Notes under the pieces: generated by a model | Database searches by the model: none | The model's input: the letters and a program-made list of their open reading frames with translations, nothing else | What the model was told of the DNA's origin: nothing | Part shown: positions 43,843-51,467 of the stretch, piece by piece | Position numbering within the stretch: the first letter of the stretch is position 1 | Layout: the number at the start of each line of letters is the position of its first letter | Position numbers and translations under genes: made by a program | NCBI GenBank assembly: GCA_963735025.1 | Contig: CAVTJG010000020.1 | Coordinates: forward strand, 64,502-128,501 | Length of the DNA: 64,000 nt | Reading direction: 5' to 3' | Source of the DNA: an uncultured beta proteobacterium | Lineage (GTDB): Bacteria; Pseudomonadota; Gammaproteobacteria; Burkholderiales; SG8-39

Positions 43843-44781
43843 GTCCCTGGAGCTTCATCCCGCCCGCCGCGTCCGCGATGGCGCACCGCATCGACGTGCT
43901 CTTCTTCTCGCTGGTGGGCCTGTCAATCGTGGTGATCGGCGGCATCGCGACCCTGATCGGTTTCTTCTGCATCCGCTACCGGGCGGGCACCGCTGCCGAC
44001 CGTTCGAACCCGGTCGCGCGCAACCGCGCCCTCGAATACGCCTGGATCTTCACGCCGCTCGTCATCTTCCTCGGCATCTTCGGCTGGGCGGCGGCGCTCT
44101 ACGCCGAGCTGTACCGGCCGCCTGCCGACGCGATCGAGATCACAGTGATCGGCAAGCAATGGATGTGGAAGCTCCAGCACCCGGAAGGACGGCGCGAGAT
44201 CAACGAGCTCCACGTGCCGCTCGGCCGCCCGGTCCGCCTGCTGATGACCTCGCAGGACGTGATCCACAGCTTCTTCGTGCCGGCGTTGCGCATCAAGCAG
44301 GACGTCGTGCCAGGCCGCTACCTGTCGCTGTGGTTCACACCCACGCGCGCGGGCACATTCCACCTGTTCTGTGCGGAGATGTGCGGAACCGGGCATTCGC
44401 GCATGACCGGACGCGTGATCGTCATGCCGCCCGCCGACTATGCGCGGTGGATCGCGCAGGGCGCGCCGCTCGAATCGGCGGCTCGAGAGGGCGCGCGACT
44501 GTTCACCACCATCGGCTGCAGCGGCTGCCACGGCGCCAACGCGACCGTGCACGCGCCCACGCTCGAGGGACTTTTCCGGAGCACCGTGCACCTGGACGGC
44601 GGCGGAACGCTCGTCGCCGACGAGACCTACATCCGCGGACTCGATACTGCTGCCGCGCAAGCCGGTGGTCGCGGGTTACGCGCCGATCATGCCCTCGTTC
44701 CAGGGCCAGCTCGACGAGCAGCAGCTCTTCGCACTGGTCGCGTACATCAAGTCCCTGCCCGCCGAAGGGACGCCACCGATG
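43839..44781 (+). pseudogene. coxB: caa3-type cytochrome c oxidase subunit II (one frame change as sequenced)
   Basis: MSPWSF... with two TMs, the CuA site HLFCAEMCGTGHSRM and a cytochrome c domain CSGCH. After ADETYIR the sequence continues in the frame of ORF 44440 (DSILLPRKPVVAGYAPIMPSFQGQLDEQQLFALVAYIKSL). There is an extra G near 44636. The stop is not cleanly identifiable. Confidence 0.8.
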
Positions 44782-46420
44782 AGCGCCATCGCTCGCCAGC
44801 GCCGAGCCGAGCTACGTCGCGACGAAGCTCTCCGCTCCTGTCGTGGCTCACGACACGCGATCACAAGCGCATCGCGCATCCTGTACCTGCGTCTCGATCA
44901 CCGCGTTCTTCGTCATCGGCGGCGTCGCGGCCGCGATGATCCGCCTCGAGCTGCTGACCCCGGCCGGCGATCTGGTGACCGACCGACACCTACAACAAGC
45001 TGTTCACCATGCACGGCGTGGTGATGGTGTGGTTCTTCCTGATTCCGTCGATCCCGGCCACCCTGGGCAACTTCCTGATCCCGCTGATGATCGGCGCGCG
45101 CGACGTGGCGTTTCCGCGGCTCAACCTGGCGAGCTGGTACCTGTACACGATCGGCGGGCTGTTCACCGTCGGCGACGCTGCTCGCCGGCGGGGTCGACAC
45201 CGGCTGGACGTTCTACACGCCGTTCTCGACCATGTTCTCCAACTCGCAACGTGATCCTGGCGGTCTGTCGGCGTGTTCATCGTCGGCTTCTCGTCGATCC
45301 TCACCGGCCTCAACTTCATCGTCACCATCCACAGCATGCGCGCCCCGGGCATGACCTGGTTCCGGCTGCCGCTGTTCGTCTGGGCGCTACTACGCGACGA
45401 GCATCATGATGGTGCTGGCGACGCCGGTGCTGGCCATCGACGCTCGGACTGATCGCGCTCGAGCGGCTGCTCCGGGTCGGCATCTTCGATCCGGCCCTCG
45501 GCGGCGACCCGCTGCTGTTCCAGCACCTGTTCTGGTTCTATTCCCACCCGGCGGTCTACATCATGATCCTGCCCGGCGATGGGCGTGGTCAGCGAGATCA
45601 TCACCTGCTTCGCGCGCAAGCCGATCTTCGGCTATCGCTTCATGGTCTACGCGATTCTCGGCATCGCCGTGATCGGCTTCCTGGTGTGGGGTCATCACAT
45701 GTTCGTCAGCGGCCAGTCGGTGTACGCGGGCATGGTGTTCTCGCTGCTGAGCTTCCTGGTGGCGGTGCCGTCGGCCATCAAGGTCTTCAACTGGACCGCG
45801 ACGCTGTACAAGGGCTCGATCACGTTCGAGGCGCCGATGCTCTACGCGCTCGGCTTCATCGGCCTGTTCATGATCGGCGGGATCACCGGGCTGTTCCTCG
45901 CCGCGCTGGCGGTCGACGTGCACCTCACCGACACCTACTTCGTGGTGGCGCATTTCCACTACATCATGGTCGGCGGGATGGTCATGGCCTTTCTCGGCGG
46001 CATGCATTTCTGGTGGCCGAAGATCACCGGCCGCCTGTATCCCGAGACCTGGGCGCGCAGCTCGCGGCCATGCTGATGTTCGTCGGTTTCAATCTGACGT
46101 TCTTCCCGCAGTACATCGCTCGGGTATCTGGGCATGCCGCGGCGCTACCACGCGTATCCGCCCGAGTTCCAGATGCTGAACGTGCTGTCGTCGGCCGGCG
46201 CGTCGATCCTGGCGGTCGGCTACCTGCTGCCGCTGGTCTACCTCGGCTGGTCGCTGCTGCCACGGCCGCCGCGCCGGCCCCAATCCGTGGCACGCCACTG
46301 GCCTCGAATGGCAGACGCCATCGCCGCCGCCCGAGCACAACTTCGACGACACGCCGATCGTGCGCGAAGGTCCCTACGGATACTCGCCGCAGCACGCCCA
46401 GGAGCCAGGGGTGTCCGCTG
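44779..46420 (+). pseudogene. ctaD: cytochrome c oxidase subunit I, about 13 frame changes as sequenced
   Basis: The conserved CtaD sequence is scattered over three frames: SWLTTRDHKRIA / ILYL / [30 protein letters not shown] / [22 protein letters not shown]... / [19 protein letters not shown] / ... / [20 protein letters not shown]...GHHMF...HFHYIMVGG / [13 protein letters not shown] / ...[10 protein letters not shown]. The end coordinate is approximate. Confidence 0.85.
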
Positions 46421-46427
46421 ACCGATC

Positions 46428-49062: not shown

Positions 49063-49082
49063 GCCAACCTCCCTGTCTCACC

Positions 49083-50087
49083 CTATGATTCGCTTTGCTC
49101 GCCATAAGAAAGCGCCTTCGCCTTCCCCCAGAAGACCCGGTAGGAAACCATCGTGTAGCCGATGATGACCGGCAGCACGATCATGGCGCCGACGAACACG
49201 AAGAAGAGCGACTCGTCCGAGGCGGCGGCCTCCAGATAGGTCATGCGGTCCACGACCAGATACGGGTAGAGGCTGTAAGCCAAGTCCGAGAAACGAGAAC
49301 ACGAAGACCCACACCGCAGCACGAAGGGCAGCCATTCGCGACGGCAAGGCCGCGCTGCAAGCGCGCGACCTGCGCCAGATGCCCGCGAACGCGGCAGCGG
49401 TAGCAGGGGCAGCGGGGAGAGCCACAGCAGTCGACGGCCAGCGAACCATTTCTCATGATCCGGGGGCTGGCGAAGGGCTGGCGAGACTGATGGACGCGAC
49501 GCCGAGCGCCGCGAGCACTACGGTGCCATGGCTCCAGCGGGGCGCGCGCCGGTACAGCTCGCCTTCGGTCTTGATGACCAGCCAGGTCGCGCCGAGCAAC
49601 GCGTAGGCCCCGGCCAGCCCGGCGCCGACGAGCAGCGCCGAAAGCACGTAGCGCGTGCCTTCCGCGAACCCGGTGATCATCGCCCGAGAGCATGCACGCC
49701 CTGCGCGAAGCCTGCACCGAGCGAACCGACGAAGAAAAGCGATTCCACAGCCTCCTGATGCCAGCCGGCCGCCTTCATGCGGAACTCGAAGGCCACCCCG
49801 CGCAGGATGAGCGCGATCAGCATCAGCGCGACCGGGAGGTAGAGCGAGGACAGGACACGCCGTGGGCGAGCGGGAAAAGCGACCAGTAGGATGCCGACGC
49901 CCATCACCAGCCAGGTCTCGTTCGCATCCCAGAAGGGGCCGATGGAGGCCACCATCATGTCGTGCTGTCGCGGCCGCGAGCGGCAGCAGCATTCCGACGC
50001 CGAGGTCGAAGCCGTCGAGGATGACATACGCGAGGATGGCCAGGCCCATCAGCACCATGAAGATGAACGGCAGATCGAGTTGATCAT
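49083..50087 (-). pseudogene. cydB: cytochrome bd oxidase subunit II, multiple frame changes as sequenced
   Basis: Fragments lie in different frames: (M)..DLPFIFMVLMGLAILAYVILDGFDLGVGMLLP / IGPFWDANETWLVMGVGILLVAFP / ...YPYLVVDRMTYLEAAASDESLFFVFVGAMIVLPVIIGYTMVSYRVFWGKA. Confidence 0.8.
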
Positions 50088-51467
50088 GTCGCCCGTCCGC
50101 GATCAGCTCTTGGCGGCGCTGAGGCCGCCCGGACCGGGCACCTGGCGCGCCTTCGCATCGCCGCTGCCTCCTTCAATGCCATCTGCGTCACCACCGCCAT
50201 GTACGCGACCAGCAGCACCGCATAGACGAAGGCGTAGCCGGCGAGCGTCAGAGCGCGATGTGGCCGGCGGGTACGTCGGACGGCAGCTCGGCGACGTGAG
50301 CAGTTGTAGACCAGAAGGGCTGCCGCCCGACCTCGGTCACGATCCAGCCGGCCAGCACCCCCACCCAGCCGATGAAGGTGGAGCCGGCGAAGCGTAGAGC
50401 GTCCAGCGCGGCACTCGCCGCCGCGCCAGAGGCAGCCAGGCGCCCAGCCAGGACAGCGCGAGCATCAGCACGCCGACCCCACCATGACCCGGAACGCGTA
50501 GAAGACCGGCAGCCACCGGCGGGTGCTTGCCCGCGAACTCGTTCAGTCCCAGCAACTCGGCCTCGGCATCGTGCGTCAGGATCAGGCTGGCGCCCTTCGG
50601 GATGGCGATGGCGTAGTCGTTGCGCTGCTCGGTGGCGTTCGGCACGCGAAGAGCAGCAGCGGGACGCCCCGCTCCGTGTGCCAGATGGCTTCCACCGCGG
50701 CGATCTTGGCCGGCTGATGCTCGAGCGTGTTGAGCCCGTGCATGTCGCCAACCGCATGATCTGCACCGGTGCGAGCACCGCCGCCAGCTGCCACGCCATG
50801 CGCAGCATGCGGCGCGCCGGCGCGAGATGCCGCGGTTGCGCAGCAGCTGGAACGCGGAGATGCCGGCGAGCAGGAACGCCACCGTAAGGCCCGAGGCGAT
50901 CAGCATGTGCGCCAGCCGGTAGGGCTGGCTGGGATTGAAGATGATGGCCCACCAGTCATCGCGTGGAACGCCGTCCACGATGGTGAAGCCTTGCGGGGTC
51001 TGCATCCACGAGTTGAGCGACGAGGATCCAGAACGCCGAGAGCGGTCGTGCCGGCAGGCGACCAAGAAGGGCCGAGAGCAGGTGCGCCCAGCCGGGCACC
51101 CGGTCGCGGCCGTAGAGCATCACGCCCAGAAAAGTCGCTTCGAGGAAGAAGGCGGTGAGCACCTCGTAGGCGAGCAGCGGCCCGGCGACGTTGCCGGCCC
51201 GGTCCATGAAGCCGGGCCAGTTGGTGCCGAACTGGAAGCTCATCACGATGCCGGTCACCACGCCCAGCGCGAAGGTAAGCGCGAAGATCTTCACCCACAG
51301 GTAGTAGACTTCCGCAGAGCCAGCGGCTGCGTCGCCGGCGAAAGTGATGCGCACGCGCAGGTAGAACAGCACCCAGGCGAGCCGATCGTGATGGTCGGGA
51401 ACAGGATGTGGAAACCGATGTTGAGCCCGAACTGGATGCGGGCGAGCAGGACGGGATCGGCGAGCAT
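50084..51467 (-). pseudogene. cydA: cytochrome bd oxidase subunit I, multiple frame changes as sequenced
   Basis: An ATG at 51467 gives MLADPVLLARIQFGLNIGFHILFPTITIG. The sequence continues as LAWVLFYLRVR...FALGVVTGIVMSFQFGTNWPGF...AYEVLTAFFLEATFLGVMLYG / NSWMQTPQGF... / GRQPFW in other frames. The stop overlaps the cydB ATG (ATGA). Confidence 0.8.

Follow-up and report, generated by a model that had tools for sequence, protein, structure and literature searches.

Dense single-base frame breaks in the caa3- and bd-type oxidase genes of a metagenome contig are best explained as assembly consensus errors

Are the frame breaks that interrupt the terminal oxidase genes of this contig part of an organism's DNA, or did they arise when its sequence was assembled? 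The window (the whole stretch of DNA that was analysed, 64,000 nucleotides) belongs to an unannotated, metagenome-type NCBI/ENA contig of 133,477 nt, most probably part of the metagenome-assembled genome of a betaproteobacterium (Burkholderiales-like). Downstream of the genes for Alternative Complex III (ACIII) and SCO lies a caa3 operon, coxB-ctaD-coxC-coxD, in which all four subunit families are recognized after frame correction, in the same order as in L164, the contig of a close relative; as written, its reading frames are interrupted in coxB, ctaD and coxC. The adjacent genes for the subunit I and subunit II families of CydAB likewise match their profiles at full length after correction and are broken as written. 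Annotation at face value would thus give an organism with Alternative Complex III but with neither an aa3-type nor a bd-type oxidase, in our view a false 'respiratory remodelling'.

Since composition-based calling was too noisy at 66% G+C, genes were called by homology. Frameshift-aware alignment to intact homologues revealed ~60 one-base frame breaks across the oxidase region, and in six-frame translations the conserved oxidase peptides hop between frames. Profile alignment with a frameshift penalty of 12 placed 14 breaks in ctaD, 1 in coxB, 3 in coxC, 17 in cydB and 22 in cydA, to which nucleotide alignment to the closest relative (L164) added a second coxB event at 44773, and the final tallies were 2 (coxB), 14 (ctaD), 3 (coxC), 1–2 (CDF), 17–18 (cydB) and 22 (cydA). 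When intact homologous genes were put through the identical procedure, 20 of 21 runs returned no event and the other a single spurious N-terminal call. The frame breaks are far beyond chance. The first-pass annotation had already located the concentration of indels in both oxidase loci, although it counted fewer of them. Its one break near 44636 in coxB corresponds to the event at 44637, the second having been missed; its figure of about 13 for ctaD compares with our 14; its minimum of three for coxC equals our score; and its one CDF break near 48115 matches the clear event at 48108–48111, with a further doubtful one near 48320. The 'several each' that it allowed for cydB and cydA turned out to be about 40 events in the pair.

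Table 1. Coordinates of genes, blocks and flanks in the window
Feature	Position	Strand	Details
Left flank	40492..44274		Logan contig ERR11594398_5625: 4 substitutions, 0 indels
coxB	43839..44782	+	caa3-type subunit II with C-terminal cytochrome c domain; two 1-nt insertions, 44637 and 44773
Error block 1	44637..46962		~20 events in 2.3 kb, ~8.6 per kb; insertions dominate
ctaD	44779..46421	+	Subunit I; 14 frame breaks: 13 single extra bases and one 2-nt insertion at 46047
ctaD extra bases	44795, 44832, 44877, 44889, 44982, 45170, 45247, 45268, 45389, 45437, 45575, 46119, 46258	+	One more in the tail
coxC	46428..47061	+	Subunit III; 3 frame breaks: ~46532 (+1), 46691 (-1), 46949/46959
coxD	47058..47363	+	Subunit IV, intact; COX4_pro 1-71/72; 0 events vs L164
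CDF	47409..48370	+	Cation-efflux transporter; missing base 48108-48111; doubtful event near 48320, in unconserved tail
DUF4396	48391..49062	-	Membrane protein, intact; DUF4396 2-141/141; 0 events vs L164
cydB	49083..50087	-	Cytochrome bd subunit II; 17-18 breaks: 6 '+1', 11 '-1', probable missing base right after ATG (50087)
Error block 2	49231..51383		~18 events per kb (39 over 2.15 kb), deletions in the majority
cydA	50100..51467	-	Cytochrome bd subunit I, 3' end approximate; 22 breaks: 8 '+1', 14 '-1'
Right flank	51936..60230		Logan contigs ERR11594398_1049509 and _157672, 30-nt overlap: 4 substitutions, 0 indels

Within the oxidase genes every event is 1 nt long with a single exception of 2 nt, and indels of 3 nt or more are absent from coxB, ctaD, coxC, cydB and cydA. 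Compared to L164, only two events in coxB, ctaD and coxC are not of 1 nt: a 2-nt insertion, and a gap of 2 nt, ambiguous, where ctaD meets coxC in unconserved sequence; no codon gaps are found in these three genes, and the few longer gaps fall in coxD, in the coxD–CDF spacer and in the unconserved CDF tail. An L001 'coxC' tried as reference proved to be an off-frame ORF and was discarded. The breaks occur in non-homopolymer contexts that have no motif in common. Because of the insertion at 44773, the TGA with which coxB should overlap the ctaD ATG is lost from coxB. In the CDF gene, aligned to the intact 321-aa CDF of L164, the missing base splits the membrane domain from the C-terminal domain, and the first ORF matches Cation_efflux at 1–197/198. 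The intactness of coxD and DUF4396, claimed earlier, was confirmed by Pfam and by the L164 comparison; an ORF at 48404–49105 considered as DUF4396 lies in a different frame and is spurious.

The breaks do not form the single indel-rich stretch described at first pass, but two dense blocks on either side of 2.3 kb (coxD, CDF and DUF4396) that is nearly clean. Block 2 could reach ~51935 by way of a non-coding stretch, where frame breaks cannot be scored. The sign bias of the two blocks is opposite, the first being insertion-rich and the second deletion-rich, so that the earlier statement that most events are one extra base is true of the cox block (~17 '+1' versus 2–3 '-1') and fails for the cyd block (25 '-1' versus 14 '+1'). 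No break was detected in the rest of the window (~50 kb). The flanking operons are clean, as had been claimed: Pfam domains are full-length in 20 flanking ORFs, and ActE, ActF, a 133-aa protein and SCO show no event against L164. Over 12.1 kb of flank, the Logan k-mer contigs of run ERR11594398 differ from the window by 8 substitutions and by no indel, compared with ~60 events in 6.75 kb of the oxidase region. The errors keep to patches, and the sequence next to them is accurate. The inner ends of the Logan contigs, at 44274 and 51936, fall a short way outside the damaged stretch; ERR11594398_5625 stops inside coxB, 363 nt ahead of the first frame break, and the first right-flank contig begins within the SOD gene.

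No Logan contig was found for the interior by exact-protein look-ups, which miss one-residue or start-codon differences. In such look-ups nothing matched five start variants of coxD, several longer ORFs read in the coxD frame or six start variants of the true DUF4396 ORF (the 223-aa variant being searched against the contig index only); the Logan contigs likewise had no match to a read-through coxB fragment whose sequence was guessed. The frameshift-made ORFs 45579–46076 and 47409–48176 are on no indexed Logan contig; they do occur in the protein collection, with the source contig as their sole origin. When seven stitched segments were joined into one chimeric query, it gave just two distant matches, but since it missed even the window's own CDF fragment, its negative outcome carries no weight. 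The closest relatives found are two JGI contigs from different samples (L164 and L165), both with uninterrupted coxB, ctaD, coxC and coxD, and on the longer of the two CDF is intact too. In L001–L004 and L081–L085 the genes are likewise uninterrupted. No near-identical relative was retrieved: the best match in a scan of genome contigs was 87% identical in amino acids over a 159-aa ctaD segment, protein searches peaked at 85% for stitched ctaD and at 76–77% for the cydA N-terminus (many matches being truncated), and nothing close was found in the plasmid collection.

After frame correction the proteins bear no sign of decay. Not one nonsense codon occurs in the ~1,860 codons of the reconstructed genes. 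The corrected proteins are all full length in Pfam: coxB matches COX2 and Cytochrom_C, ctaD COX1 (1–436/436), coxC COX3, cydB Cyt_bd_oxida_II (1–302/302) and cydA Cyt_bd_oxida_I (1–417/418). Stitched coxB and the 313-aa coxB of L164 share 84% identity without codon gaps, and coxC is 83% identical to its counterpart there. For stitched ctaD the identity to the nearest relative is 86%, as against 71–80% for intact neighbouring genes. Identity to the family consensus lies inside the range of intact controls, and no corrected protein exceeds intact relatives in deviations at family-invariant residues. The first-pass remark that peptides between shifts are canonical and do not accumulate substitutions is thereby borne out at invariant columns, none of which deviates in ctaD (0/201) or cydA (0/97). 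When neutral decay was simulated with one random substitution per indel, all invariant residues stayed untouched in 1% of trials for ctaD alone, and with three substitutions per indel they were all spared in 0 of 2000. Judged by substitutions at constrained sites, by stops and by the indel-size spectrum, the genes do not look like pseudogenes in neutral decay.

We conclude that the frame breaks are, with high probability, errors of the assembly consensus and not the organism's DNA, which on this reading has intact caa3-type and bd-type oxidases. The first-pass annotation took an unpolished or low-coverage patch of the assembly to fit better than old pseudogenes, and the absence of stops, the lack of excess substitutions, the near-restriction to 1-nt events, the unannotated source contig and the indel-free Logan flanks support that preference; its further suggestion of insertion-type read errors suits one block only, since deletions prevail in the cyd block. 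Consensus errors of long-read assemblies fragment genes (PMC12007338), and errors survive short-read polishing in places where reads align unreliably (PMC8812927). Most of the contig would then be base-accurate, and two patches of ~2.2 kb (ctaD–coxC and cydB–cydA) would be raw or poorly polished consensus carrying 1–2% single-base insertions and deletions. The likeliest route, we infer, would be a long-read or hybrid assembly whose correction by accurate reads missed just these two stretches. Accurate-read coverage or unique mappability may have failed in the patches, the patches may be gap fills from few noisy reads, or the consensus may have been corrupted by reads of related organisms with the same conserved genes.

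Several observations sit less easily with an artefact. The density of events is very uneven, with 1–2 between the blocks versus 20 and 39 inside them, which a simple low-coverage patch does not explain. Both blocks sit exactly on terminal-oxidase genes, a placement that looks biological. The breaks do not lie in homopolymers, the typical site of nanopore consensus errors. Finally, a GH15 gene nearby carries a genuine-looking lesion, described below.

The blocks may instead be a different kind of artefact, namely mosaics produced when the consensus was built or polished with reads of several related organisms, and not merely unpolished noisy reads; we regard this as possible but rather unlikely. 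The genes in the blocks (ctaD, coxC, cydA and cydB) are among the region's most conserved, and coxD, CDF and DUF4396, which are conserved less strongly, are clean. Logan contig L162 ends in the conserved coxB sequence for QDVIHSF, where shared k-mers should break the graph, and related populations at ~80% nucleotide identity occur in other metagenomes. However, fdhB, fdhA, actB and sodB are also highly conserved genes of the window and are clean. A sliding-window search for block segments near-identical to known homologues gave none among the retrieved homologues, so a mosaic could not be demonstrated.

If, on the other hand, the indels are truly in the DNA, which we consider highly unlikely, both oxidases have either just been lost by a locally targeted, indel-only process or are expressed through novel recoding or editing. 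The former, a very recent loss of the caa3 and bd oxidases in a burst of ±1 frameshifts with ACIII, formate dehydrogenase and SOD kept, is itself improbable. It would account for hits in both terminal oxidase loci and for the sparing of the genes that lie in between, which are small or unrelated. Gene decay does happen in this genome: a nearby GH15 gene has an in-frame TAG stop that is also in the independently made Logan assembly and, since the TAG is shared, the genome holds at least one genuinely disrupted gene. Against a real loss, ~60 indels are accompanied by no detectable substitution excess, nonsense codon or larger indel, and ctaD alone rejects neutral decay at one substitution per indel (at ~1%). 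There is also no reason why a gene already dead should take 13 to 21 more hits with clean DNA next to it, the cox genes are intact in the closest relatives, and the process would have to make ±1 indels only and be confined to two 2-kb blocks. To our knowledge, no mutational process acts in this way outside homopolymers and with one sign bias in the first block and the opposite one in the second.

That the genes are cryptogenes, whose real indels are decoded by RNA editing, transcriptional slippage or programmed ribosomal frameshifting, with the protein sequence under purifying selection across frames because the products are restored, has a negligible chance of being correct: peptides perfectly conserved over all frame changes are what recoding would leave, but an assembly artefact, far commoner, gives the identical signature, +1 and -1 shifts are mixed, the shift sites have no common motif, slippery sequence or old-frame stop, their density reaches one event per 55 nt, such sites are absent from homologues at 85% identity, and we know of no bacterial recoding system of this kind.

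Taken as consensus errors, then, the breaks are not a real feature of the organism; their biological interest is small and their value practical. They show that consensus errors can cluster in sharply bounded blocks within an otherwise accurate contig, and the combination of many ±1 breaks with no added substitutions at residues invariant in the family offers a cheap, read-free test of assembly error versus pseudogene.

The window resembles systems of RNA editing or programmed frameshifting (kinetoplastid and Physarum mitochondria, prfB, Euplotes) in that respiratory protein sequence is conserved over many frame changes, but it differs from them in lacking a site motif, in its bidirectional shifts, in the absence of the sites from close homologues and in lying on a bacterial chromosome-type contig. 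With genuine pseudogenes, such as those of Mycobacterium leprae and recent host-restricted pathogens, it shares frameshifted respiratory genes beside intact neighbours. In real pseudogenes, however, frameshifts come with substitutions, nonsense codons and larger deletions, and young ones have one or two lesions, whereas single genes here have 14 to 22 lesions without substitution excess, stops or larger deletions. From the usual nanopore residue the window departs in its non-homopolymer events and in its two blocks of opposite insertion/deletion bias. As in unpolished long-read or hybrid assemblies, however, single-base indels cut conserved genes into frame-hopping pieces (PMC12007338, PMC8812927), truncated cydA products are found on long contigs of other assemblies in the protein database (P0141, P0179), and errors cluster where accurate-read support is missing, with accurate flanks adjoining bad patches.

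In the six-frame translation of 44–52 kb, canonical oxidase peptides switch frames along coxB, ctaD and coxC on the plus strand and along cydB and cydA on the minus strand. Frame breaks were scored with a protein-to-DNA aligner permitting insertions and deletions of 1 and 2 nt, using single intact homologues first and then family profiles, each from 50–120 homologues that a protein search and 160 fetched loci had supplied. The best-matching homologues are from the Burkholderiales (Massilia, Noviherbaspirillum, Oxalicibacterium and Casimicrobiaceae). At a frameshift penalty of 12, profile alignment detected 14 events in ctaD, 1 in coxB, 3 in coxC, 17 in cydB and 22 in cydA. 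Altogether, about 60 events span positions 44637–51383, compared with a single spurious, N-terminal call when the identical procedure was applied to 21 intact homologous genes, bearing out the frame breaks that the first-pass annotation had described in the cox and cyd genes.

The nearest relative found, a 12.6-kb JGI metagenome contig (L164), carries uninterrupted genes for ActE, ActF, a 133-aa protein, SCO, coxB (313 aa), ctaD (541 aa), coxC (217 aa), coxD (102 aa), the CDF cation-efflux transporter (321 aa) and DUF4396. Aligned to L164, the window's ActE, ActF, 133-aa protein, SCO, coxD and DUF4396 genes showed zero events. The coxB gene contains an additional G and, as seen in the nucleotide alignment, an additional C that destroys the stop codon expected to overlap the ctaD ATG. 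Besides a 2-nt insertion, ctaD has 13 single extra bases; there are three events in coxC, one base is missing from the CDF gene, and cydB seems to lack one base directly after its ATG. L164 also has a PG_binding gene between CDF and DUF4396, and beside DUF4396 it carries a molybdopterin oxidoreductase gene and a DUF202 gene instead of cydBA; the cydAB pair next to the cox cluster is therefore a lineage-specific insertion or rearrangement.

Coordinates of frame breaks, matching contigs and other features (window positions)
Feature	Position	Strand	Remark
Ankyrin-repeat protein gene	29868–30653	+	Immediately 3′ of fdhA, fdhB, fdhC
Logan contig L162	40492–44274		
Block 1	44637–46962		2.3 kb, ~20 events
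coxB additional G	44637	+	
coxB additional C	44773	+	
Spurious ORF	45563–47404	+	613 aa
ctaD 2-nt insertion	46047	+	
CDF missing base	48108–48111		
Spurious ORF	48404–49105	-	233 aa
Segment compared with L164 8301–10105	49083–51467		
Block 2	49231–51383		2.15 kb, 39 events
cydB ATG (base apparently missing directly after it)	50087	-	
Logan contig L161	51936–56586		
GH15/trehalase-like gene	56360–58192	-	
In-frame TAG in GH15 gene	57014–57016	-	ATG immediately after
Logan contig L163	56557–60230		
Putative IS110-family transposase ORF	60503–61675	-	
Substitutions relative to Logan contigs	40830, 41581, 41709, 43542, 53156, 53404, 57653, 57723		

The events are unevenly spaced, falling into two dense blocks separated by 2.3 kb in which only 1–2 events occur and which contain coxD, DUF4396 and the greater part of the CDF gene. 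Block 1 is rich in insertions (about 17 extra versus 2–3 missing bases) and block 2 in deletions (25 missing versus 14 extra). All four nucleotides occur among the extra bases in ctaD; no more than 4 of 16 adjoin an identical base, and runs of three or longer contain none of them. Elsewhere, the window appears clean, with full-length Pfam domains in 20 flanking ORFs, among them RpoN, a CheB/CheR-PAS kinase, FdhA/B/C, ActA/B/C and SOD. Long spurious ORFs are typical of high-G+C DNA, and they are plentiful here because G+C is 62–72% across most of the window; the two listed in the table run off-frame or antisense through real genes, so that an open ORF in this region is no proof of an intact gene.

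Decay was assessed on the corrected genes, in which the reading frame is rejoined after removal of the breaks. These contain no stop codon in about 1860 reconstructed codons, and Pfam coverage is essentially complete for COX1 (1–436 of 436), Cyt_bd_oxida_I (1–417 of 418) and Cyt_bd_oxida_II (1–302 of 302), with further matches to COX2 plus cytochrome c and to COX3. Corrected ctaD shows zero codon gaps relative to Massilia and JGI homologues, no deviation at the 201 columns invariant in 120 homologues and one at columns conserved at ≥95%, where intact homologues average 2.6. Deviations in cydA, cydB and coxB lie inside the intact-homologue range, and coxC is at its upper end, with 5 at columns conserved at ≥90% (homologue mean 1.7; as many in 6 of 70). 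Identity to the family consensus is likewise inside the control range. Corrected ctaD is 86% identical to L164 and the intact neighbour genes 71–80%, which is their normal ranking. When random substitutions were placed on corrected ctaD, every invariant residue was spared in 1% of trials at one substitution per indel and in 0 of 2000 at three; at ten, the expectation is 3.6 stop codons. This excludes ordinary neutral decay, and only a process yielding almost solely ±1 indels fits. For both oxidases to have been lost for real, and very recently, about 60 separate ±1 indels would have had to arise within two 2-kb blocks with no substitutions alongside them, many as redundant hits in already dead genes; we regard this as improbable. 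A recoding or editing system that decodes real indels would account for the preserved protein sequence, yet the sites lack a common motif, include shifts of either direction, reach a density of one per 55 nt and are missing from homologues at 85% identity, making this reading negligible.

By exact look-up, the proteins of the window, the ORFs made by frameshifts among them, trace to a single unannotated NCBI/ENA contig 133,477 nt long. Three Logan contigs of run ERR11594398, found via exact copies of flanking proteins, match the window across 12.1 kb with no indel and 8 substitutions; the latter point to strain-level polymorphism or to a consensus built on a somewhat different set of reads. 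The overlap between L161 and L163 is exactly 30 nt, as expected of adjacent contigs in a k=31 graph. On the left, coverage ends 363 nt upstream of the first frame break; on the right, its boundary lies inside the SOD gene, shortly past the last scorable one. Exact look-up found the frameshift-derived ORFs of the window, a read-through coxB fragment (guessed sequence) and the 223-aa DUF4396 on no indexed contig, and 5 coxD and 6 further DUF4396 start variants were missing from the protein collection. Thus, in ERR11594398 the flanks assemble cleanly and match the window, while the interior is either unassembled or different from it, a pattern that indirectly agrees with the prediction of an assembly artefact.

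Several other features were observed. The GH15 gene is split by its TAG (Glyco_hydro_15 positions 3–149 in the first ORF, 161–425 in the second), identically in L163; since independent Logan data show it, this is probably a real nonsense mutation, unlike the oxidase indels. Syntenic L164 has a single GH15 gene of 604 aa, just 41% identical to that of the window. A few plasmid records show 90–99% identity to some part of 40–64 kb. Bacterial fdh clusters do not usually have a neighbour such as the ankyrin-repeat gene.

Taken together, the oxidase frame breaks are very probably assembly consensus errors and not biological. The absence of stops, the 0 of 201 ctaD deviations and the indel-free Logan flanks support the first-pass preference for an artefact over pseudogenes. 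Most likely, both blocks are consensus stretches that accurate reads never corrected, or else derive from few noisy reads or a read mixture. We infer as candidate routes gap filling in a hybrid assembly, polishing that passed over regions with ambiguous read mapping, or cross-recruitment of reads from relatives sharing these conserved genes. Such routes do not account for the scarcity of events in the intervening 2.3 kb, for the contrary indel biases of the two blocks or for the non-homopolymer contexts. Two cydA products of other assemblies in the public protein database (P0141 and P0179, on long contigs of 24 and 188 kb) also go off-frame midway; frameshift-truncated cydA is therefore not unique to this contig. 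The oxidase frame breaks call for caution in metabolic inference from contigs of this kind. Both relevant effects are documented: long-read consensus errors lead to gene fragmentation (PMC12007338), and errors persist where short-read alignment is unreliable (PMC8812927).
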